Positions 1 to 43,907 of a DNA stretch of 64,000 nucleotides are shown here, in pieces; positions within the stretch are counted from its first letter, which is position 1; each line of letters starts with the position of its first letter. A model generated the notes under the pieces. It saw nothing but the letters and a program-made list of their open reading frames with translations. It made no database searches and was not told the DNA's origin. The stretch is from a virus: IMG/VR virus record IMGVR_UViG_3300032313_000664, positions 1 through 64,000 of that record; one strand, given 5' to 3'. The position numbers and the translations under genes were made by a program.

Positions 1-35
1 AGTAGGCTTTCGATTGTGTATAGTTTGGTAGCCAT
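1..35 (-). CDS. 5' part of small hypothetical protein (MATKLYTIESL...), runs off window
   Basis: ATG at 35, SD-like GAAAGAAGG upstream, directly downstream of promoter at 71-92. Confidence 0.6.
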   Translation of the reverse strand, partial: MATKLYTIESL

Positions 36-70
36 TGGCAGACCTTCTTTCGTTTGTTGTTATGTATGGA

Positions 71-92
71 ATTATACACGAACCCACTGACA
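71..92 (-). promoter_or_regulatory. PafBC/RecA-NDp-like promoter TGTCAG-N10-TATAAT
   Basis: minus strand reads TGTCAG tgggttcgtg TATAAT, upstream of SD and ATG at 35. Confidence 0.7.
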
Positions 93-140
93 TTTTCACA
101 TTACTAGCCAGTAAATCCAAATACTGAGACGCTCAAGTCG

Positions 141-156
141 TGTGATAAGCATCACA
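141..156. promoter_or_regulatory. CRP/GlxR-type palindrome
   Basis: TGTGA taagca TCACA, perfect TGTGA-N6-TCACA. Confidence 0.65.
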
Positions 157-175
157 CCGAAATGTCCGTTTTGTC

Positions 176-290
176 TGTCAAATCGACACGCCGTAAATTT
201 CAGGGTTTTTTATAACAAATCCGTAACGACACGCCCGACGCCGCCACCTCTTGTGGGCGCAGCTGCCGATTTGTCAAATCGACACGCCGT
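176..290. repeat. 19-bp perfect direct repeat TGTCAAATCGACACGCCGT (176-194, 272-290) plus GACACGCC core at 228-235
   Basis: read directly; core recurs at 1158-1165. Confidence 0.85.
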
Positions 291-298
291 TTATTTAT

Positions 299-314
299 TG
301 TGAGTTATGTCTCA
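299..314. promoter_or_regulatory. CRP/GlxR-type site, 1 mismatch
   Basis: TGTGA gttatg TCTCA. Confidence 0.45.
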
Positions 315-505
315 TCTTCTAATTCTGCTAAATAATCTTGGTGTTCTACTAAACCAATCGCAAACGCAACGGGATCGCAACACTCTAAGATTTCGGCGGG
401 AGTAAAAGTTGAGTAACCGATTTTTACAGTTGGATAAATGTCATTTAGTAAATCAATAAAACTTTCTTTGATTTCTAAATCTTTTTCAAATTGTGATTTA
501 TTCAT
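305..505 (-). CDS. acidic hypothetical protein, 66 aa
   Basis: ORF track; GGGGGA SD-like; last gene of coupled operon. Confidence 0.8.
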   Translation of the reverse strand: MNKSQFEKDLEIKESFIDLLNDIYPTVKIGYSTFTPAEILECCDPVAFAIGLVEHQDYLAELEDET

Positions 506-611
506 TTAGTCCCCCGTTTTTTATGTCTTTGATTACGGCGATTAGTAGCGGAATAGTTACTCCCGCTAATAGTAATTGGACGGCGGTAGTTAGTAGGCGA
601 TTAGTAGTCAT
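498..611 (-). CDS. 37-aa single-TM microprotein (MTTNRLLTTAVQLLLAGVTIPLLIAVIKDIKNGGLNE)
   Basis: hand translation; TAATG overlap with upstream ORF. Confidence 0.7.
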   Translation of the reverse strand: MTTNRLLTTAVQLLLAGVTIPLLIAVIKDIKNGGLNE

Positions 612-766
612 TACTTATTCTTCTTTCTCTTATAAATCTTATAAGCGATTAGTGCTAGGGCGGTGATAATAATAGTGTGCCAAGGTAGATAGATAGACCC
701 TAGAAAACTATCTAACTCAAATCCGTATTCGCTAGTTATGTATAAATCAAATCCGTTAGGTATCAT
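611..766 (-). CDS. 51-aa membrane microprotein with basic C-tail
   Basis: hand translation MIPNGFDLY...IIITALALIAYKIYKRKKNK; TAATG coupling at both ends. Confidence 0.7.
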   Translation of the reverse strand: MIPNGFDLYITSEYGFELDSFLGSIYLPWHTIIITALALIAYKIYKRKKNK

Positions 767-939
767 TATTCGTATGCCTCCCAATCTAGTGTTAGTGATT
801 TAGATAGTTCATCTTCATCATAATCGGTAGCGCCTATTTCTAAGCCCTCTGCTAGTGCCTTGTTATAGGCTTCTTCTTCATCTAGATAGACATAAGCGTC
901 TGCTATATCCGCTTGGATAGTATCCCATTTAGTCATCAT
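766..939 (-). CDS. 57-aa highly acidic microprotein
   Basis: MMTKWDTIQADIADAYVYLDEEEAY...DWEAYE; SD GAGG; TAATG coupling. Confidence 0.75.
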   Translation of the reverse strand: MMTKWDTIQADIADAYVYLDEEEAYNKALAEGLEIGATDYDEDELSKSLTLDWEAYE

Positions 940-1091
940 TACTTTACCTCTACTTCTCTAATGTTATAAGTGAAACCCTTACCGAGTTTATTTAGTTCAG
1001 CGATTACCGCTAAGATTTCTTCAGGCTTACTAGCCTTTTGATTTACGGCTAATAGTTGAGAGCCTTGCCATAGTGTATAAGTGATAGTCAT
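939..1091 (-). CDS. 50-aa hypothetical microprotein
   Basis: MTITYTLWQGSQLL...IREVEVK; SD-like GAAAGAAG; first gene after promoter 1127-1148. Confidence 0.75.
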   Translation of the reverse strand: MTITYTLWQGSQLLAVNQKASKPEEILAVIAELNKLGKGFTYNIREVEVK

Positions 1092-1126
1092 TATCTGTTC
1101 TTCTTTCGTTAGTAGTTATAGTAGGA

Positions 1127-1148
1127 ATTGTAGCGCATAGCGCCGACA
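1127..1148 (-). promoter_or_regulatory. PafBC/RecA-NDp-like promoter TGTCGG-N10-TACAAT
   Basis: minus strand TGTCGG cgctatgcgc TACAAT. Confidence 0.7.
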
Positions 1149-1166
1149 TTGTATAGCGACACGCCG

Positions 1167-1271
1167 TTAGGCGTTAGTGTGATTATGGTCACACACGGAC
1201 TCGATTTCGTGTCCGAACTCCTCTACGAGTTCCTCGTAGATTTCGTCCATATAATCAAGATAATCGTTCAT
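1167..1271 (-). CDS. 34-aa acidic microprotein (MNDYLDYMDEIYEELVEEFGHEIESVCDHNHTNA)
   Basis: hand translation; SD GGGAG; follows 1276-1464. Confidence 0.65.
   Translation of the reverse strand: MNDYLDYMDEIYEELVEEFGHEIESVCDHNHTNA
1178..1193. promoter_or_regulatory. CRP/GlxR-type palindrome
   Basis: TGTGA ttatgg TCACA, perfect consensus. Confidence 0.65.
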
Positions 1272-1275
1272 TAGA

Positions 1276-1464
1276 TTACTCCCAACTTCTAGTAGTGGCA
1301 ATTACTACACGCTTGCTAGGCTTGTAGTTAGGTAACTCGGTTAGAGTTACTGTATCTATAACTCTAGTCTGTGAGACTAGGTCTAGATACTCGTTAGCGT
1401 ATTCCTCGCTAGGAACTAGGAGGGTAGTAGAGCCTAAGCCTACTGTGTATTTTAGTGAAAACAT
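1276..1464 (-). CDS. hypothetical protein, 62 aa
   Basis: ORF track; SD GAAAGGA. Confidence 0.8.
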   Translation of the reverse strand: MFSLKYTVGLGSTTLLVPSEEYANEYLDLVSQTRVIDTVTLTELPNYKPSKRVVIATTRSWE

Positions 1465-1515
1465 TTTGTTTTCCTTTCTTTATCAAGAACCTTTCTTGAT
1501 TTTCTTTATAGTATA

Positions 1516-1537
1516 ACTCTAGCAGGGGGGTCTGACA
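1516..1537 (-). promoter_or_regulatory. PafBC/RecA-NDp-like promoter TGTCAG-N10-TAGAGT
   Basis: minus strand TGTCAG acccccctgc TAGAGT. Confidence 0.65.
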
Positions 1538-1585
1538 TTTATCAAGTCGCAACTCGGTCAAATCGGACATTTTAGAAAAGTAATT

Positions 1586-1601
1586 AGTGTTTTACATCAC
1601 A
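1586..1601. promoter_or_regulatory. degenerate CRP/GlxR-type site
   Basis: AGTGT tttaca TCACA; same distance to its promoter as site 141-156. Confidence 0.45.
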
Positions 1602-1706
1602 TTTAGCCTATTTATGGGCGCACTATCGGACAAATCGGACATCCCCAAAGGGGTGTATCGTACAAATTAAAAATATATTAACATTTTGTCAAAATTGAAA
1701 AAGCTA

Positions 1707-1736
1707 TTGACTTTCGAAAAAACTAAATGTTATACT
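1707..1736 (+). promoter_or_regulatory. sigma70/SigA-type promoter
   Basis: TTGACT-N18-TATACT with TGn extended -10. Confidence 0.65.
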
Positions 1737-1742
1737 TGGGAA

Positions 1743-1885
1743 GGTTTCGGGGGGTTACACTAAGGAACTCAATATGCCAAGTAATTCTTGGAAGTTGGAT
1801 CCAGACTCTCCTCTATCTTTCCAAAAAGATTTTTTAAATTTGGGGGGTAGGGGGGGTTTGCTAAAAAATCTAATTTCCAAGTAAT
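1743..1885 (+). ncRNA. candidate structured RNA containing G6-TA-G7 tract
   Basis: long GU-rich hairpin 1787-1881; alternative stem 1827-1836/1862-1871; downstream of promoter. Confidence 0.45.
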
Positions 1886-2008
1886 CAATTAAAAGCAAAT
1901 ACAAATATATAATATATATAAGCAATAGGCAATAGCCAAAAAATATTTTATTAACATTTGAATATATCTAATATTGCAGTTGACTAGAATATATAGTACA
2001 ATAGAGAT

Positions 2009-2119
2009 ATGAAATGCAACTTCTGCGATAATGAAAAATACGTCCAACGATTAAATTCGAGGGGGGCACTAGAGAACTTCTGTGTCGAATGCATTTCCAA
2101 ATTAAGGGTGGTATACTAA
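2009..2119 (+). CDS. 36-aa Zn-ribbon microprotein (CNFC...CVEC)
   Basis: hand translation; two CxxC. Confidence 0.65.
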   Translation: MKCNFCDNEKYVQRLNSRGALENFCVECISKLRVVY

Positions 2120-2123
2120 GATC

Positions 2124-2291
2124 ATGAATAACATATCAACTAACCTAGCTCCATGTGATGTATGCAATTTATCACACTGGGGAGTAACAATGGATGATCA
2201 AGGAATCTTGTCTCCATACTGCACATATTGCTCTGGGGATTATGCCCATACTAAAGAAGCAAGAAATGCTGCAGAAGGTATCAATCCATAA
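2124..2291 (+). CDS. 55-aa Zn-ribbon microprotein (CDVC...CTYC)
   Basis: hand translation; two CxxC. Confidence 0.65.
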   Translation: MNNISTNLAPCDVCNLSHWGVTMDDQGILSPYCTYCSGDYAHTKEARNAAEGINP

Positions 2292-2314
2292 TATTATAGT
2301 CGACTAGGATTATT

Positions 2315-2458
2315 ATGCATGATCATGAAAATATTGTTCTAGCCACAGGTTCAGGAATAACTGAGATGCAGCTAATGTGGATTTTAATGGGAGCAATGGC
2401 TATTCACCATATTTGGATGTGGTGGAAGATGAAAAAGAAAAATTGTAACTGCAAGTGA
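2315..2458 (+). CDS. 47-aa membrane microprotein
   Basis: MHDHENIVL...LMWILMGAMAIHHIWMWWKMKKKNCNCK; SD AGGA. Confidence 0.65.
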   Translation: MHDHENIVLATGSGITEMQLMWILMGAMAIHHIWMWWKMKKKNCNCK

Positions 2459-2532
2459 ACTGGTTACAAGCAACAATAATATTTGGACCTATATTGGTTC
2501 TATTAATAGCATTTTGGGATGATATAAAATGA
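2455..2532 (+). CDS. 25-aa membrane peptide
   Basis: GTG start in GTGA overlap; NWLQATIIFGPILVLLIAFWDDIK; ends in ATGA overlap. Confidence 0.5.
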   Translation: MNWLQATIIFGPILVLLIAFWDDIK

Positions 2533-2675
2533 AGAAGATCTATGCTTTAATTGCGTTAACTGCGACAGCAGTCTTCTCAGGTCTAGCTTTGTCTAAATTT
2601 TTAAATTGGGCGGGAAAGCAAGAAGATATCTTTGATTTTGACCTAAATGAAGATATAGACAATGAACAGTTCTAA
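2529..2675 (+). CDS. 48-aa signal-anchored peptide with acidic tail
   Basis: MKKIYALIALTATAVFSGLAL...DIDNEQF; ATGA coupling. Confidence 0.65.
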   Translation: MKKIYALIALTATAVFSGLALSKFLNWAGKQEDIFDFDLNEDIDNEQF

Positions 2676-2742
2676 ATCATTCCTATGGTCATTGCTAATC
2701 ATCCTTGGTGCATACTACTCATTGGTGTATATAACTCTATAG
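2662..2742 (+). CDS. 26-aa membrane peptide
   Basis: MNSSKSFLWSLLIILGAYYSLVYITL; overlaps previous stop. Confidence 0.45.
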   Translation: MNSSKSFLWSLLIILGAYYSLVYITL

Positions 2743-2963
2743 GGTAAAATCCCTAGCTTTTTCTCTCCCGCCCTTTTAAGGGTTCAAGTATCGGAGATAC
2801 CAAATATGACCCAGTAGGGCTTTAGAGGCCTCATAGAGGCTGTTTAAGGCATATTCTGCAAATGATCACATATGGGAAAGAGGGTGTTCTATTTTCGGCG
2901 CACTTTTTTCGCACTTTTTGCACTATATGTCCATATTGCCCGTATTATATAAATACTATCTAT

Positions 2964-3008
2964 AAAAAGAAAAAATCCCATTCAGAGGCGGATCCGAATG
3001 GGCTTTTC
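2964..3008. terminator. probable bidirectional intrinsic terminator
   Basis: CCCATTC/GAATGGG stem with A-tract left and T-tract right, between convergent genes. Confidence 0.55.
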
Positions 3009-3083
3009 TAGTGTATTACTACACATTATATAGGGAGACATGGTGGTGTCTCTAACCTACACATCTTTATTGTAGAATATGTT

Positions 3084-3395
3084 TTATTCTAAGTCAACTA
3101 CTTTCTCATCATTTTTTGATATGCTTTCTACAATGGCCTCAGCTGGAGGATAGCTAGTAATAAATCCATAAGGATCCTTGCTTGTCTCAGGATTGTTCCC
3201 CAGGTATTCAAGATACTCTGGAAGATTAGTAATTTCAGCCAAAAGAACCATAAGGTCTACGCATCTTTTATGGGTAAACATATGTGTAGTATGACACCTA
3301 TATGCTTCATCTACATTTGGGCAAACTTTAAGTATTTCCATAAGTCTAAAAACAATCTTATGGGCCATCTCCATTTGTTCTTGACTATAAGCCAT
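3084..3395 (-). CDS. hypothetical protein
   Basis: ORF track; overlaps upstream gene in operon. Confidence 0.75.
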   Translation of the reverse strand: MAYSQEQMEMAHKIVFRLMEILKVCPNVDEAYRCHTTHMFTHKRCVDLMVLLAEITNLPEYLEYLGNNPETSKDPYGFITSYPPAEAIVESISKNDEKVVDLE

Positions 3396-3630
3396 CTACT
3401 TCATCCTTTATCTCAATTGGAGTATATGCAGGTTCAGGCCCAAGCAAGAATCCTTTTTCGTGATATCCAACCATCTTTGATGTTTCTTCCCCTCCGACAA
3501 TTTTGTCAGCAATTAAAGAAAGAAGATCGTATATTCTATGCAGCATAATGTAGGTAACCATTGGAAGGTTCTCTTCAATAGTTCCAGCATCAGATATTAT
3601 AGCCCCATCAGGCAATTGTGATTCATCCAT
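3385..3630 (-). CDS. hypothetical protein
   Basis: ORF track; SD GGAGG. Confidence 0.8.
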   Translation of the reverse strand: MDESQLPDGAIISDAGTIEENLPMVTYIMLHRIYDLLSLIADKIVGGEETSKMVGYHEKGFLLGPEPAYTPIEIKDEVDGL

Positions 3631-3796
3631 TTTTATTTATCCCTCCATCAGTATTAGGGAAGATTACAGGCATCTTCCATTCGTATGTTTCAAATCCAGA
3701 AGACTCATATTGCATCTCTTCTGCCGCCGACGCACTTTCTGTTGCAATTTGTAGTCCTTGACCACAGCTACAATTTCCACATCCACATTCTGACAT
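3623..3796 (-). CDS. 57-aa protein with N-terminal CGCGNCSC motif
   Basis: hand translation MSECGCGNCSCGQGLQIA...; fills the gap, TAATG-coupled to 3796-4497. Confidence 0.7.
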   Translation of the reverse strand: MSECGCGNCSCGQGLQIATESASAAEEMQYESSGFETYEWKMPVIFPNTDGGINKNG

Positions 3797-4497
3797 TAGT
3801 TGTATTCCTTTCTGTTCCAGTATTTGTTTTTATACCAACCAATAATATGTTTTACCGACTCGCTACGTGCCAACTTTGCTTCAGACAAAAGATTAGTATT
3901 TCTTTCAAGTTTCCAAGGCTCTGATTTAATCGGTATAATTTGTGCAATAGGAGTGCCAGCTTTAATTATTCCTTCAAATCCCATTTGAAGAAGAAAAGGC
4001 ATTTTTCCACCATTCATTGGATAGTTTGCATCAACCACGCCAGACATTGTTCTAAATGGAAGATCATCTCTATTTAATGGATGAGTTATCAATAAGCTAT
4101 ATCCGTCTTCTACTTTTAGTATTTGTTTTGTGCTCCATGAAAAATGATTTGAGTGAAAGCCTTGAGGAATTGGTAATGTTGGCACCATTCCTTTGTCTCT
4201 TTCAATAACAAAATCTGTTTCTGTATAATCAGAGTCAAAAAAGTTCCAGCTTATTCTAGGGCCTCCTGGAGTTTGTTCAACAAGAAGATCTACAGGAGCT
4301 GGAATGTAATATCCAGTTAAAAAGGCATCCATAAAAGGAGCACAACTTTTTACTGTTATTGTAGATGGAGAAATGCTTAGCTTTCCTCCTGAAAACTTTT
4401 CTATTTTTTTAAACCAATCAGGAATTACATTTTTCATGTACCCTATTGGTTCAAATACTGGGTGATATAAATCGTATTCTAATTTTTTAGATTTCAT
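3796..4497 (-). CDS. DUF6065-like / dUTPase-fold-like protein, paralog 1
   Basis: KSCAPFMDA..GY, HPLNR, GIIKAGTPIAQIIP motifs shared with 17172 and 17818 genes. Confidence 0.6.
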   Translation of the reverse strand: MKSKKLEYDLYHPVFEPIGYMKNVIPDWFKKIEKFSGGKLSISPSTITVKSCAPFMDAFLTGYYIPAPVDLLVEQTPGGPRISWNFFDSDYTETDFVIERDKGMVPTLPIPQGFHSNHFSWSTKQILKVEDGYSLLITHPLNRDDLPFRTMSGVVDANYPMNGGKMPFLLQMGFEGIIKAGTPIAQIIPIKSEPWKLERNTNLLSEAKLARSESVKHIIGWYKNKYWNRKEYN

Positions 4498-4696
4498 TTT
4501 TAATCGCTTCTACTATTTTGCTGTAAACTTCTAATCCTATGTTGTTTCTATATTCACAAGACAAACAATATAAAAATATATTATTGTCTAAATCCATGTT
4601 AGATTGAAGAGAGCCCTGATCCATTGGACATTCAAGTCTAGGAACAAGGCCCTCTTCTGATAAGGCTATGTACTTAGATACATACTGTATCTGCAT
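4487..4696 (-). CDS. small Zn-binding protein
   Basis: CPMD...CLSC. Confidence 0.75.
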   Translation of the reverse strand: MQIQYVSKYIALSEEGLVPRLECPMDQGSLQSNMDLDNNIFLYCLSCEYRNNIGLEVYSKIVEAIKNEI

Positions 4697-4701
4697 TTGA
4701 C

Positions 4702-5253
4702 CTACTTTTTCTGATCAGTCGGGAATTGCAATAGCCATTCCTGCGCTTTTGGGGTCATACCCTTCCAAGCTGACCAATCAATACCGCCATTGGTCATATA
4801 ATACGTTATCTCTGCGTTTGTTACTGGGTCGAATAACTCTCTGTTACTCTTTAGGTCGAATTTCTCAAGTCTTTCAGGACCAAGATTTCCGATCATGTTG
4901 ATCTGGAATATTCCGTAGGAACTATCTCCAGTATTCTTATTCCCGTTATATGCAAGCGGTCTTCCGTTAGATTCACGCTTTGCTATTGACCAGGCTTTCT
5001 TAAGGCCTGACCCTTCGAATCCTACAGTCTCAAGTAATAGTTTTAACTCTTTGTCTGTAAGCATCTCAGATGGCTTGTAAATCTCTTTACTAAAACTATC
5101 TAAGACTTCTTGCATTAATTGGGCTTCAGTTTTCACTAAAGGTTTTACTACTAAGGCATTTGCAGGCTGTACAGGAAACAAAAATAATGTTATCATTACT
5201 ATTGTAACCAGGTTATGAGCCAAATCACTTACCTGTTGTTTTATTTTCTCCAT
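4702..5253 (-). CDS. lysozyme-like lytic transglycosylase with N-terminal signal/TM segment
   Basis: IAKRESNG catalytic Glu, SYGIFQIN, DPVTNA, WSAW; start moved to 5253 by SD GAGGAGG. Confidence 0.8.
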   Translation of the reverse strand: MEKIKQQVSDLAHNLVTIVMITLFLFPVQPANALVVKPLVKTEAQLMQEVLDSFSKEIYKPSEMLTDKELKLLLETVGFEGSGLKKAWSIAKRESNGRPLAYNGNKNTGDSSYGIFQINMIGNLGPERLEKFDLKSNRELFDPVTNAEITYYMTNGGIDWSAWKGMTPKAQEWLLQFPTDQKK

Positions 5254-5338
5254 TGGCATTTCCTCCTCTAGAGATAACGAACTATAATAATAACATTGAA
5301 TACCTAAGCCTGTCAAGCCAGTCAACCAGAAAGAAAAC

Positions 5339-6340
5339 ATGAAAATATCTTATTATACGATTAAAGCAGGGTTAAACCCAGCTGTTGGCTTTGGTTATGC
5401 TGGAAAGAATATAGTTAAATCATTAAATAATTTAGGTCATTATGTTACATATGCTGATCCTAAAGCAGATATCCAAATTAATTTTACACAACCGCAACAT
5501 TTTAAAATGCATAGAGGGCAGTATCAAATTGGGTATACTCCTTGGGAATCAACATCGATGAGACCAGATTGGGTTGAAAGATTTAATTATTGCGACGAAG
5601 TCTGGACAACATCAGATTGGTGTGCTCAAGTATTTAAAGATAATGGAATAACAAAACCAATATATGTTTACCCTCACGGCATTGAAGATTTTTGGAAACC
5701 AAAAAGAAGAGTGCTTAATGATGGCCAGCCAATAAAGTTCTTACATATTGGAGAACCTTCACCAAGAAAAGACGGACAATTAGCAGTAGATACTTTTGCT
5801 AAAATGTTTGGAAATAATCCTGACTATCAGCTTACCCTAAAATGTCATAATTCTAATACTACAAGAATGTATAATTCAAATAACGAATTTGTTACACCAG
5901 ATGCTATTTATTCAAATATAAAAATTATAACTGATGAGTATACAGAACAACAGCTTTTAAGTTTATATTATAGTCATCATGTTCTTTTGTATCCAACCTG
6001 GGGAGAAGGCTTTGGCTTTATTCCACTTCAAGGACTTGCAACAGGTATGCCTGTTATATCAACATACGACTGGTGTCATTATAAAAATTATTTAGGCCCG
6101 CTTAAATTAAAATCTAAACTAACGGATGAGACTTTACCAAAGTCTGTAGGAGATGACTATATTGGAAAAATGTTTAAGCCAGATGCAAAACATCTAGAAG
6201 ATCAAATGTATGAAGCAGTAATTAACTTTAAAGCTTATTCTGGTTATTATTTTGCTCAAGCAAATCAAATACATAAAGATTATAATTGGGATCAGTTGAC
6301 TAAGAATGCATTTGAAAGATTGTCTAAAAAGTTTTCCTAA
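5339..6340 (+). CDS. GT4 (GT-B) glycosyltransferase
   Basis: TPWEST, PRKD, EGFGFIPLQGLATGMPVI motifs. Confidence 0.9.
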   Translation: MKISYYTIKAGLNPAVGFGYAGKNIVKSLNNLGHYVTYADPKADIQINFTQPQHFKMHRGQYQIGYTPWESTSMRPDWVERFNYCDEVWTTSDWCAQVFKDNGITKPIYVYPHGIEDFWKPKRRVLNDGQPIKFLHIGEPSPRKDGQLAVDTFAKMFGNNPDYQLTLKCHNSNTTRMYNSNNEFVTPDAIYSNIKIITDEYTEQQLLSLYYSHHVLLYPTWGEGFGFIPLQGLATGMPVISTYDWCHYKNYLGPLKLKSKLTDETLPKSVGDDYIGKMFKPDAKHLEDQMYEAVINFKAYSGYYFAQANQIHKDYNWDQLTKNAFERLSKKFS

Positions 6341-42339: not shown

Positions 42340-43907
42340 TTGAGGTTCAAGAAGAAGACGGAAATACAATTGATATATCTAACACAGCCGACTGGTTTTC
42401 TTTTAAAAAAGAGCAGCCAACAAGTGACCCATTTGCAATAAGCGGAGATGACCTAAAAAAAGTAAGAGGCTTAGGAACAGCATTTAAAAGAAAAATTAAC
42501 CGAGAGTTTTCAAAAGCTTTTACAGGAATTGAAGGCGTAGGCACACAACAAAATCTTCTTGCACAGGCTATTAGTGGCTATGCAATGTTTGACCTTATTG
42601 AGCCACCATACAACCAAGAATATCTATCGAAAATTTATGAAGTGTCAACATATAACTATGCAGCAATTAATGCAAAGGTTGCAAACATTGTTGGGCTAGG
42701 ATACGATTTTGTTGAAACAAAAAAGACAAATGATGCATTTGATTCAATAACAGATGAGAAGCAATTAGAAAGAGCCCGCAAAAAGCTTAACAGGTTGCGC
42801 CAAGACCTACACGAATGGTTGGATACAACAAATGAAGAAGATACCTTTACTCAAACATTAATTAAGGTGTACACAGATTTAGAGGCAACAGGAAATGGCT
42901 ATATTGAAATAGGCAGAACTACAGGCGGAAACATCGGATACATTGGGCATATTCCTGCAAAGACAATGCGTGTACGTAGACTAAGAGATGGCTTTGTTCA
43001 ATTGCTTTACGGCAAGGCAGTCTTCTTTAATAATTTCGGAGACACAGAAACAGAGAATCCAATTGCTGGACAAGAAGATCGACCAAATGAAATTATACAT
43101 TTAAAGAAGTACACACCAATGAACAACTACTACGGCATACCAGATATTGTGGCTGCTCAGGTTGCTCTAACTGGCAATGAATTTTCTGGAAGATATAACC
43201 TAGATTACTTTGAAAATAAGGCGGTCCCAAGATATATTATTACAGTAAAGGGAGCAAAGCTTTCACCAGAGTCAGAAAGAAAGCTGCTTGAATTTTTCCA
43301 GGTGGGGTTAAAGGGCAAAAACCATAGATCTCTATATGTCCCACTTCCATCAGATACCCCTGACTCAAAAGTTGAATTTAAGATGGAGCCAATTGAAGCT
43401 GGAAACCAAGAAGGCTCATTTGAGAAATATCGTAAATCAAATAGAGATGAAATTTTGCTAGCCCACCGTGTTCCAATTAATAAAATAGGAACACCAGAGG
43501 GAGTTAATTTGGCTGTTGCTCGTGACGCAGATAAGACATTTAAAGAGCAAGTCTGTAGACCCGCCCAGATGATTCTGGAAAAGAAAATTAATAATATATT
43601 CGGCGAGAAGACAGACGCATTGCTTTTAAAGTTTAATGAATTAACATTGACTGACGAAGATACCCAGTCTAAAATTGACGAAAGATATTTAAGAATGCAG
43701 GTCATTACCCCTAATGAAGTTAGAATTAGAAAAGGCATGATTCCAATTGATGGCGGAGATAAGGTCGTAGACCTTCAAGCCCAAGCAGCAGAAATTAGAG
43801 CCCAAGCTGGGAACACCAGACAAAGGTCTCAAGATCGCCAAGCAAATTCCCCAGATGTTTCTGGAGAAGGAAGAAATGCTAAAGGCGACGGCAGACAAGT
43901 TGACTAA
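42336..43907 (+). CDS. portal protein
   Basis: TGNGYIEI, EIIH.K, YYGIP, HRVP, ITPNEVR. Confidence 0.9.
   Translation: MIEVQEEDGNTIDISNTADWFSFKKEQPTSDPFAISGDDLKKVRGLGTAFKRKINREFSKAFTGIEGVGTQQNLLAQAISGYAMFDLIEPPYNQEYLSKIYEVSTYNYAAINAKVANIVGLGYDFVETKKTNDAFDSITDEKQLERARKKLNRLRQDLHEWLDTTNEEDTFTQTLIKVYTDLEATGNGYIEIGRTTGGNIGYIGHIPAKTMRVRRLRDGFVQLLYGKAVFFNNFGDTETENPIAGQEDRPNEIIHLKKYTPMNNYYGIPDIVAAQVALTGNEFSGRYNLDYFENKAVPRYIITVKGAKLSPESERKLLEFFQVGLKGKNHRSLYVPLPSDTPDSKVEFKMEPIEAGNQEGSFEKYRKSNRDEILLAHRVPINKIGTPEGVNLAVARDADKTFKEQVCRPAQMILEKKINNIFGEKTDALLLKFNELTLTDEDTQSKIDERYLRMQVITPNEVRIRKGMIPIDGGDKVVDLQAQAAEIRAQAGNTRQRSQDRQANSPDVSGEGRNAKGDGRQVD

Follow-up and report, generated by a model that had tools for sequence, protein, structure and literature searches.

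The 64,000-nt window analysed here (bases 1-64000 of the 89,838-base IMG/VR virus contig IMGVR_UViG_3300032313_000664, which is classed linear and estimated to be 83% complete) carries near its left end a rightward promoter followed by split G tracts and an AT-rich stretch. We conclude that this element is very probably the gene, or the leader, for a structured RNA of ~140-220 nt, and that the RNA belongs to an undescribed family of uncultured low-GC lake phages that are distant kin of the Streptomyces Stanwilliamsviridae. Its mode of action is more tentative. We give well under an even chance to the proposal that the RNA acts in trans, with the G tracts as its surface and a C/U-rich strand as their cover, a proposal in which the transcript ends, the trans action and the partner are all inferred. 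Identity and mode, taken together as one overall statement, come a little short of an even chance. A first-pass annotation of the same DNA had read the locus as a gated primer RNA or R-loop replication origin and kept a novel non-coding RNA (ncRNA) as its fallback. It is the fallback that our results support. The element has a promoter of its own, a hairpin specific to the + strand, G tracts in 68 relatives and compensatory changes, with no conserved open reading frame (ORF) and no Rfam match. These are the generic features of a structured ncRNA; the changes in its core helix are one-sided.

A family of lake phages shares the element

A 2OG-oxygenase-like gene next to the element led to 20 related loci, and eight of these sequences were alignable over the gap that holds it (alignment A1). 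A conserved upstream box yielded 49 loci and a degenerate G-tract pattern yielded further ones; after sorting, 68 distinct sequences were obtained. All 68 members share the architecture, all lie on contigs of 32-42% G+C with the same neighbouring genes, and the element always sits at the same divergent early junction. The G-tract pattern search found exactly one split G tract in each of the six near-complete relatives (91-100% complete). Covariance model R1 matches 1740-1892 of the window at 112.7 bits and matches nothing else in the contig.

The 49 box-found loci serve as an unbiased sample of the genomic slot. They comprise 21 of type A (the full form), 11 of type B and 13 of a large variant; one of the remaining loci has a type B copy elsewhere in its genome, and three show nothing in the DNA examined. 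Type B consists of a consensus promoter, 6 nt, G6-TC-G6 and an A/T-rich tract, with no C/U strand (L025, L043-L045, L047-L049, L052, L056, L063, L066 and L199:1400-1700), and in one 104-kb relative it lies at a different genomic place. The large variant encodes an RNA of ~260 nt behind the same promoter, with shared 5' and 3' modules (L026:2960-3320; also L028, L029, L034, L038, L039, L041, L055, L062, L064, L065, L069 and L070). Its insert holds a GGUUCAACC hairpin and another hairpin with seven U behind it. The G runs are reduced to G4-UAUA-G4, with A-U pairs in their place and the helix retained. The element is single-copy and near-universal in a widespread group of ~100-kb lake phages, with three architectures at one genomic slot, and the family is recognisable by a strong promoter, split G tracts under a C/U strand and two co-evolving modules.

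Searches of other collections returned no counterpart. With Rfam 15, positions 1-6000 of the window gave two chance matches at E<=1, both away from the element, and 1700-2000 gave as its best match at E<=10 mir-3552, with 16.7 bits against a gathering score of 120; the large variant of the relatives likewise had no credible Rfam match. A blastn search of 1500-2300 against 50,697 phage records found no match. Model R1 found none in three cultured Streptomyces phage relatives, a search run without a positive control. Eight places in 185,579 species genomes matched a strict 5'-motif pattern, none with G tracts or RNA context; divergent members would escape such a pattern. Literature searches on the G-tract strings and on freshwater actinophage RNA motifs, made in one library of papers, turned up no description of the element.

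The promoter and the predicted start of the RNA

The rightward promoter named in the first-pass annotation holds up. It agrees with the sigma-70/SigA consensus at 10 of 12 positions and has TG ahead of the -10 hexamer; taken as a whole, the promoter scan returned 29 sites where shuffles gave 24.3 +/- 4.8, no more than chance. The promoter is conserved in all eight sequences of alignment A1. Across the family, the form TTGAC(T/C/A)-N18-TA(T/C)A(C/A)T with TG occurs in 58 of the 67 members having sufficient upstream DNA, and its spacer is 18 nt without exception. In 56 of these 58 the -10 stops 6-7 nt before a conserved GGUUU, so the RNA most likely starts at about G1743. Upstream lies the A/T-rich box ATATTAACATTT, which is invariant in alignment A1. 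A pattern search found 3 matches to it in the window against 1.54 expected, so the significance of the box comes from its conservation and not from its counts. It may function like an UP element.

The promoter and the RNA occupy a gap of ~540 bases between opposed blocks of small ORFs. Minus-strand ORFs end at 1464 and 1570 and plus-strand ORFs begin at 2009, a layout that confirms the strand switch noted earlier at the element.

A strand-specific hairpin holds the G tracts

Folding of the + strand over 1742-1985 gives -57.1 kcal/mol (z = -3.74), and none of 200 shuffles is equally good, whereas 59 of 200 shuffles match the - strand (z = -0.50). The minimum-energy fold pairs 1784-1800 with 1868-1885 and 1802-1825 with 1839-1860. 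This is the structure that the first-pass annotation called Fold A and confined to the + strand, and both parts of that claim stand.

A check of coordinates also placed the G6-TA-G7 tract at 1842-1856 as claimed. The whole contig has six runs of at least six G on the + strand, and five of them lie within 1525-2066. Among the 68 members the two runs are 6+6, 6+7, 7+7 or 6+8 long, and the linker between them is TA in 47, AAA in 14 and A in 7. The split tract pairs with the upstream pyrimidine strand in every one of the 68, through 10-16 pairs (median 13). Summed over the family, the inner helix holds 419 C-G, 327 U-G, 87 U-A and 47 A-U pairs, and its mean minimum free energy is -20.2 kcal/mol on the + strand, compared with -8.3 when the reverse complement is folded. 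The evidence for this core helix is a purine-free partner strand that drifts between C and U opposite an invariant G, a drift tolerated only by a single strand with G-U (or G-T) pairing.

Covariation across the relatives divides by region. Two-sided changes occur in the outer stem and beside the G tract, and those in the core helix are one-sided only. The three pairs just before the G tract flip between A-U and U-A (35 against 25 at one position, for example). In this region 23 different hexamers occur, with pairing at 3.7 of 5 positions (2.2 in shuffles). The linker covaries loosely, with UA opposite UA, A opposite U, and AAA opposite UUU in some members. MAFFT with RNAalifold (50 and 22 sequences) recovered the core helix alone, because the linker and the apical region misalign; consensus folds of the isolated 5' and 3' modules gave nothing useful. 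A helix closing the RNA by pairing its 5' and 3' parts was rejected, since it has no covariation and its own pairs score -12.0 kcal/mol against -11.4 for foreign ones.

The first-pass annotation had further proposed that the RNA is a two-state gate that switches to an alternative stem, Fold B. This stem exists in the window as ten perfect pairs between 1827-1836 and 1862-1871, and it cannot coexist with Fold A because its 5' arm lies within the Fold A apical loop. It is not conserved. Ten pairs are formed in 2 of the 68 members and seven or eight in 13, and 44 have four or five, the level of shuffles. The mean duplex energy is -2.2 against -1.5 +/- 1.4 kcal/mol, and the closest relatives (86% identical) lack the stem. 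Fold B was therefore rejected as a conserved alternative state.

Two modules change together

The hairpin is flanked by two ~37-nt direct repeats, units A and B, each of which begins with a G run and ends in a variable word, CCAAGTAAT in the window. The word differs by lineage (CCAAGU, CCAGAU, CCAGGU, CUAAGU, GGAAAU and others) and is shared by the two units of one RNA. Units A and B score 8.35 within an RNA and 5.59 between RNAs, and none of 2000 permutations reaches this. Differences specific to A and to B stay fixed beside the shared word, which argues against simple gene conversion.

In the 41 members that carry an inserted segment (seg 2 in the window), the pairing energy of the insert is -10.6 kcal/mol with its own unit B and -6.3 with those of foreign word classes. 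The outer stem formed in this way shows compensatory changes, from CCAAG/CUUGG to CCGAG/UUCGG (L178) and to CAGAU/AUCUG. A partner for the word in the 27 members without the insert was sought in the RNA, the locus and the genome and was not found. Likewise, no consistent antisense copy of the word occurs inside the loci, and its genome-wide counts are near expectation. Judged from the sequences, the RNA appears to consist of a unit A starting with G5-6; a hairpin in which the C/U strand faces G6-N(1-3)-G6/7, with G-C and G-U pairs about equally frequent; a unit B; and, in the lineage of the window, the extra segment that closes the hairpin. The coordinates are collected in Table 1.

Table 1. 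Positions of the promoter, RNA segments and adjoining tract in the window
Feature	Position	Strand	Description
A/T-rich box ATATTAACATTT	1675-1686	+	~21 nt upstream of the -35 hexamer; UP-element-like; second copy at 1948-1959
Sigma-70/SigA-type promoter	1707-1736	+	TTGACT (1707-1712), 18-nt spacer, TG-extended TATACT (1731-1736)
RNA as modelled	1743-1892	+	Start predicted at ~G1743, 6-7 nt past the -10; begins GGUUU
Unit A	1749-1785	+	First G run 1749-1754, then ~30 nt to the variable word CCAAGTAAT (1777-1785)
Seg 2	1787-1800	+	Outer-stem 5' arm; complement of the unit B word, and its CTTGG also complements the unit A word
C/U-rich strand	1802-1825	+	5' arm of the inner helix
Apical loop	1826-1838	+	Contains the Fold B 5' arm (1827-1836)
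G6-TA-G7	1842-1856	+	G6 1842-1847, TA, G7 1850-1856; invariant purine strand of the inner helix
Unit B	1850-1885	+	Third G run, then ~30 nt to the word CCAAGTAAT (1877-1885); 1868-1881 is the 3' arm of the outer stem
Extreme AT-rich tract	1885-1975		83.5% AT (genome mean 61.3%), a level found in just 0.02% of 91-nt windows

Co-evolution with a DNA-binding protein, too, would yield direct repeats that change in step. Units A and B could then be operators or iterons for one phage protein, set around a G-rich spacer, with the RNA fold incidental, and the breaks of several assemblies' contigs near the element might be counted on the same side. We nevertheless consider a DNA-level element very unlikely. 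A strand-specific helix with G-U pairs is present in all 68 members, the outer stem changes by compensation, and the A- and B-specific differences persist beside the shared word. Moreover, the units are spaced 75-102 nt apart with no helical phasing, which fits RNA modules better than DNA sites. An iteron-type origin, with at least three phased 17-22 bp repeats beside an AT tract, does not describe two unphased repeats of ~37 nt. A type III antitoxin (ToxI-like) or CRISPR-like array, which would call for near-identical tandem repeats of ~36 nt beside a toxin or cas gene, was likewise set aside, as the copies are imperfect and a hairpin stands between them; among the 68 loci no conserved neighbouring nuclease-type gene turned up.

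Coding potential

The 36-codon ORF at 1774-1884, suggested earlier as a leader peptide, does exist and has AAGGA seven nt upstream. As a conserved feature it is refuted. In the five closest relatives covering the segment its ATG at 1774 is replaced by ACA or ATA, and the indels among relatives are not multiples of three. An ATG-started ORF through both G tracts is present in 34 of the 68 members and absent from the other 34; these ORFs have six or more distinct start positions and are spread over the three phases (26, 6 and 6 ORFs). A small protein read across the G tracts, either from the 36-codon ORF or from shorter ones of the MGG(K/R)GG type, can draw on the AAGGA and on the half of the family with some such frame, yet the residues that these ORFs share (MYQ, GGxGG) are explained by nucleotide conservation, the frame of reading being different. 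We rejected the leader peptide and regard a coding role as barely credible.

The AT-rich tract and a possible replication origin

The AT-rich stretch reported next to the G tracts was confirmed and is the most AT-rich of the contig. In 20 of 52 relatives the AT maximum of the locus adjoins the G tract. The value there is just 69-76% AT in one large clade, where 1-15% of each locus's windows are more AT-rich. The tract may act as a DNA unwinding element, supply the UP region for the next promoter or form the RNA's tail.

The origin proposed in the first-pass annotation would use this tract. On that account the promoter RNA persists as an R-loop or hybrid G-quadruplex at G6-N-G6/7 and primes DNA synthesis in the AT tract, with the C/U strand as the gate. 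Much of the layout suits it. An invariant G tract follows a strong promoter and is followed directly by the AT-rich DNA, at a divergent transcription junction and in a single copy per near-complete genome; promoter, purine/G tract and A/T-rich DNA in this order are the only feature common to the three architectures, and type B copies are made of little else. The T4 oriF/oriG and T7 primary origins also consist of a promoter and then an unwinding element. The G6-A-G7 linker variant has the same form as mitochondrial conserved sequence block II (CSB II), and the phage group encodes a replication set (DnaB-like helicase, primase, SSB, DNA polymerase and UvsX-like recombinase).

Other observations weigh against an origin. 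The AT tract is not universal, as the large clade shows, and the large variant cuts its G runs to G4 and places a canonical hairpin with U7, a terminator, ahead of them. Cumulative GC skew merely follows the direction of the genes, without a change of trend at the element, and says little about an origin. In the complete relative G001 the replication genes lie at 99-109 kb and 1-3 kb, and the element lies at 42 kb. The selected outer stem and the covarying modules have no obvious role in priming, and the modules are unphased, unlike iterons. The evidence is not decisive either way, and we hold a transcription-primed origin to be rather unlikely. Its specific version, a phage counterpart of CSB II in which an R-loop or hybrid quadruplex with the non-template strand primes replication and the C/U strand is a gate at the RNA level, seems to us quite unlikely.

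How the RNA may act

In the mode that we tentatively favour, host RNA polymerase would read the RNA from the strong TG-extended promoter at the junction of the leftward and rightward early blocks. The invariant G tracts would do the work, and the C/U strand would cover them removably. As a decoy or regulator in trans, the RNA would pair with some C-rich RNA, and the two covarying modules would give lineage-specific contacts to this same partner, be it RNA or protein. We favour this mode because the G side is frozen while its partner strand drifts, because type B exposes the same tracts, and because loops of the actinobacterial small RNA (sRNA) 6C bind G6.

Several points weigh against this interpretation, some of them at the level of the fold. 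Twelve of the 13 inner-helix pairs change on one side only. In alignment A2, 92.3% of inner-helix cells are paired and 82-84% when the partner is slid by one column, and shuffling leaves the figure at 92.3% because the G side never varies. The core is consistent with a helix, for which strict covariation, and with it proof, is lacking, and the C/U strand could be retained for some other reason. Type B keeps the promoter and the G tracts with neither the C/U strand nor the hairpin. In the 27 of 68 members without the inserted segment units A and B covary too, a fact for which none of the readings considered accounts. For a decoy it is awkward that the tracts are paired in a helix of -20 kcal/mol, and a decoy for 6C is a hypothesis only.

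Nor was any pairing partner for the RNA found in the phage's own genome that was reproduced in G001. The best complementarity in the contig lies at ~70,038 (70,021-70,060, outside the window; -27.1 kcal/mol) and is an 18-bp run within a 267-codon open frame, complementary to unit B. As a trans target it was rejected as probably due to chance, because G001 gives a continuum of matches up to -25.5 kcal/mol and does not reproduce this one.

The transcription data belong to the same side of the balance, in part. Eleven freshwater RNA runs hold small shares (0.05-0.11) of 1400-5400. Contigs from RNA libraries of two studies cover the element: one of 151 nt over 1764-1915 (2 differences, depth 9.6) and, in a second run, one of 260 nt over 1767-1959 (depth 3.4). 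Of four runs aligned, the other two showed no cover in 1601-2000 (X1) and only a depth of 5 in 1801-2000 (X3). These contigs are a weak hint of transcription, as they show neither strand, ends nor level and RNA libraries can contain DNA. They run on into the AT tract, which suggests that transcripts pass beyond the hairpin, and the terminator scan found no terminator-like site in 1740-2000.

Such read-through would suit a cis-acting early leader that controls read-through of the rightward transcripts, with units A and B as nut-like sites for one phage-specific factor. The C/U strand might be a Rho-loading (rut-like) site masked by the G tracts, or the hairpin and its U-rich tail might form an attenuator. 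An early promoter lies immediately upstream of the RNA, and small early genes follow it. In 65 loci the median distance from unit B to the next plausible ORF is 127 nt, and a sigma-70-like promoter intervenes in only 7 of them. In type B relatives such as L025 an mRNA begins with the G tracts, its Shine-Dalgarno sequence and ATG coming ~55 nt later, and two covarying copies of a site per phage recall the lambdoid nutL/nutR pattern. The window itself is less accommodating. Here another promoter-like region (1948-2008), again with the upstream box, separates the RNA from the first ORF. The hairpin is trailed by no more than 4-5 U in 9 nt, a tail that the terminator scan did not pick up. The downstream genes vary among relatives, and neither a terminator nor a rut mask needs G runs that never vary. 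We consider a cis-acting leader unlikely. An intrinsic terminator or attenuator coupled to a leader peptide was also set aside, there being neither a terminator-like site nor a conserved ORF.

The surrounding locus

The contig has ~38% G+C. Genes in the window include those for ribonucleotide reductase, tail proteins, a head protease and a portal that is 58% identical to portals of Streptomyces phages (Stanwilliamsviridae); no tRNA genes were found in the window. Some relatives have a tRNA gene in or near the slot of the G-tract RNA (L030, L031, L043, downstream of the box, and L034:9687-9761). The first rightward ORFs, 2009-2119 and 2124-2291, encode proteins of 36 and 55 residues with paired CxxC motifs (zinc-ribbon-like), and in several relatives starts homologous to these ORFs come after the RNA.

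Two short motifs were also noted. AGTYGACTRR occurs in the window at 1978-1987, 2298-2307, 6294-6303 and 43898-43907, a count of 4 against 0.83 expected that 3 of 100 shuffles reach. In 29 of 65 loci its place is after the RNA and before the next ORF, and in relatives it is often found just upstream of small early genes, at times overlapping their ribosome-binding site. The conserved box CTATCGGACAAATCGGACA (1621-1641) is exact in 49 viral contigs, and CAAATCG(G)ACA half-sites are repeated in the left arm (1559-1569, 179-188 and 275-284, listed with this box).

The minus-strand ORF 4702-5340 (212 aa) has by a wide margin the top summed contig depth in each of the four lake metatranscriptomes aligned, up to ~750, a measure that cannot rank genes. 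Finally, some assemblies start or stop within a few hundred bases of the element (G002, with the element at 450, L096, L150 and L168). These breaks may reflect a hypervariable junction or trouble in assembling G runs.

Comparison with known systems

To our knowledge a role has been established for few phage small RNAs, and phages of freshwater Actinobacteria have yielded almost none. Being easy to recognise and single-copy, the element offers a good way into the study of early takeover of the host by uncultured phages. As a decoy for 6C or another C-rich host RNA, it would be a device for host takeover at the RNA level in Actinobacteria; if it is a gated primer, the CSB II mechanism would enter phage biology. 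Under either reading, two direct repeats that covary with no visible partner in 27 members are a structural puzzle.

The mitochondrial light-strand promoter (LSP) with CSB II resembles the phage locus in its order: a promoter, ~100 nt, and two G runs split by 1-2 bases, on the RNA-like strand. The CSB II form, G6-A-G7, occurs in relatives such as L022, and the window has G6-TA-G7. Unlike the mitochondrial system, the phage uses a promoter of sigma-70 type, its R-loop, hybrid quadruplex or primer is putative, and a C/U strand, which CSB II lacks, keeps its G tracts within a conserved hairpin, with two covarying modules in addition.

ColE1 RNA II, T4 oriF/oriG and the T7 origins likewise send a promoter-driven, structured non-coding transcript into A/T-rich DNA, and a run of G in the RNA makes the ColE1 hybrid more persistent. 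The phage element differs from them in having no antisense partner of the RNA I type and no sequence similarity, and its AT tract is not universal in the family.

In the Bacillus subtilis pyrG leader, poly-G pairs with the C/U-rich strand of a terminator, and the G run is added at the 5' end by reiterative transcription. Both systems set a G homopolymer against a mixed C/U strand through G-C and G-U pairs, and in both a leader would be remodelled, but the G run of the phage is encoded and no terminator is evident.

The P1 c4 and P4 CI immunity RNAs and the nut sites offer a parallel to units A, B and seg 2, since two similar copies carried by a single early transcript flank or match a third, complementary segment and change jointly by lineage. 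They show no sequence or structural similarity to the phage RNA, 27 of the 68 members have no complementary third segment, and neither a cognate protein nor a function in immunity was identified.

A precedent for G6 as a pairing target in Actinobacteria is offered by the targets of 6C, a conserved sRNA of these bacteria (PMC6486639, PMC6789036). The G runs of the phage RNA are mostly paired, unlike those of 6C targets, and a sponge role is hypothetical. PMC6486639 describes C-rich loops of 6C that bind G-rich stretches such as AGGGGGG without a chaperone, the bound six-G runs being single-stranded. The phage RNA offers two or three such runs, and the nearest cultured relatives of the phage group infect Actinobacteria.

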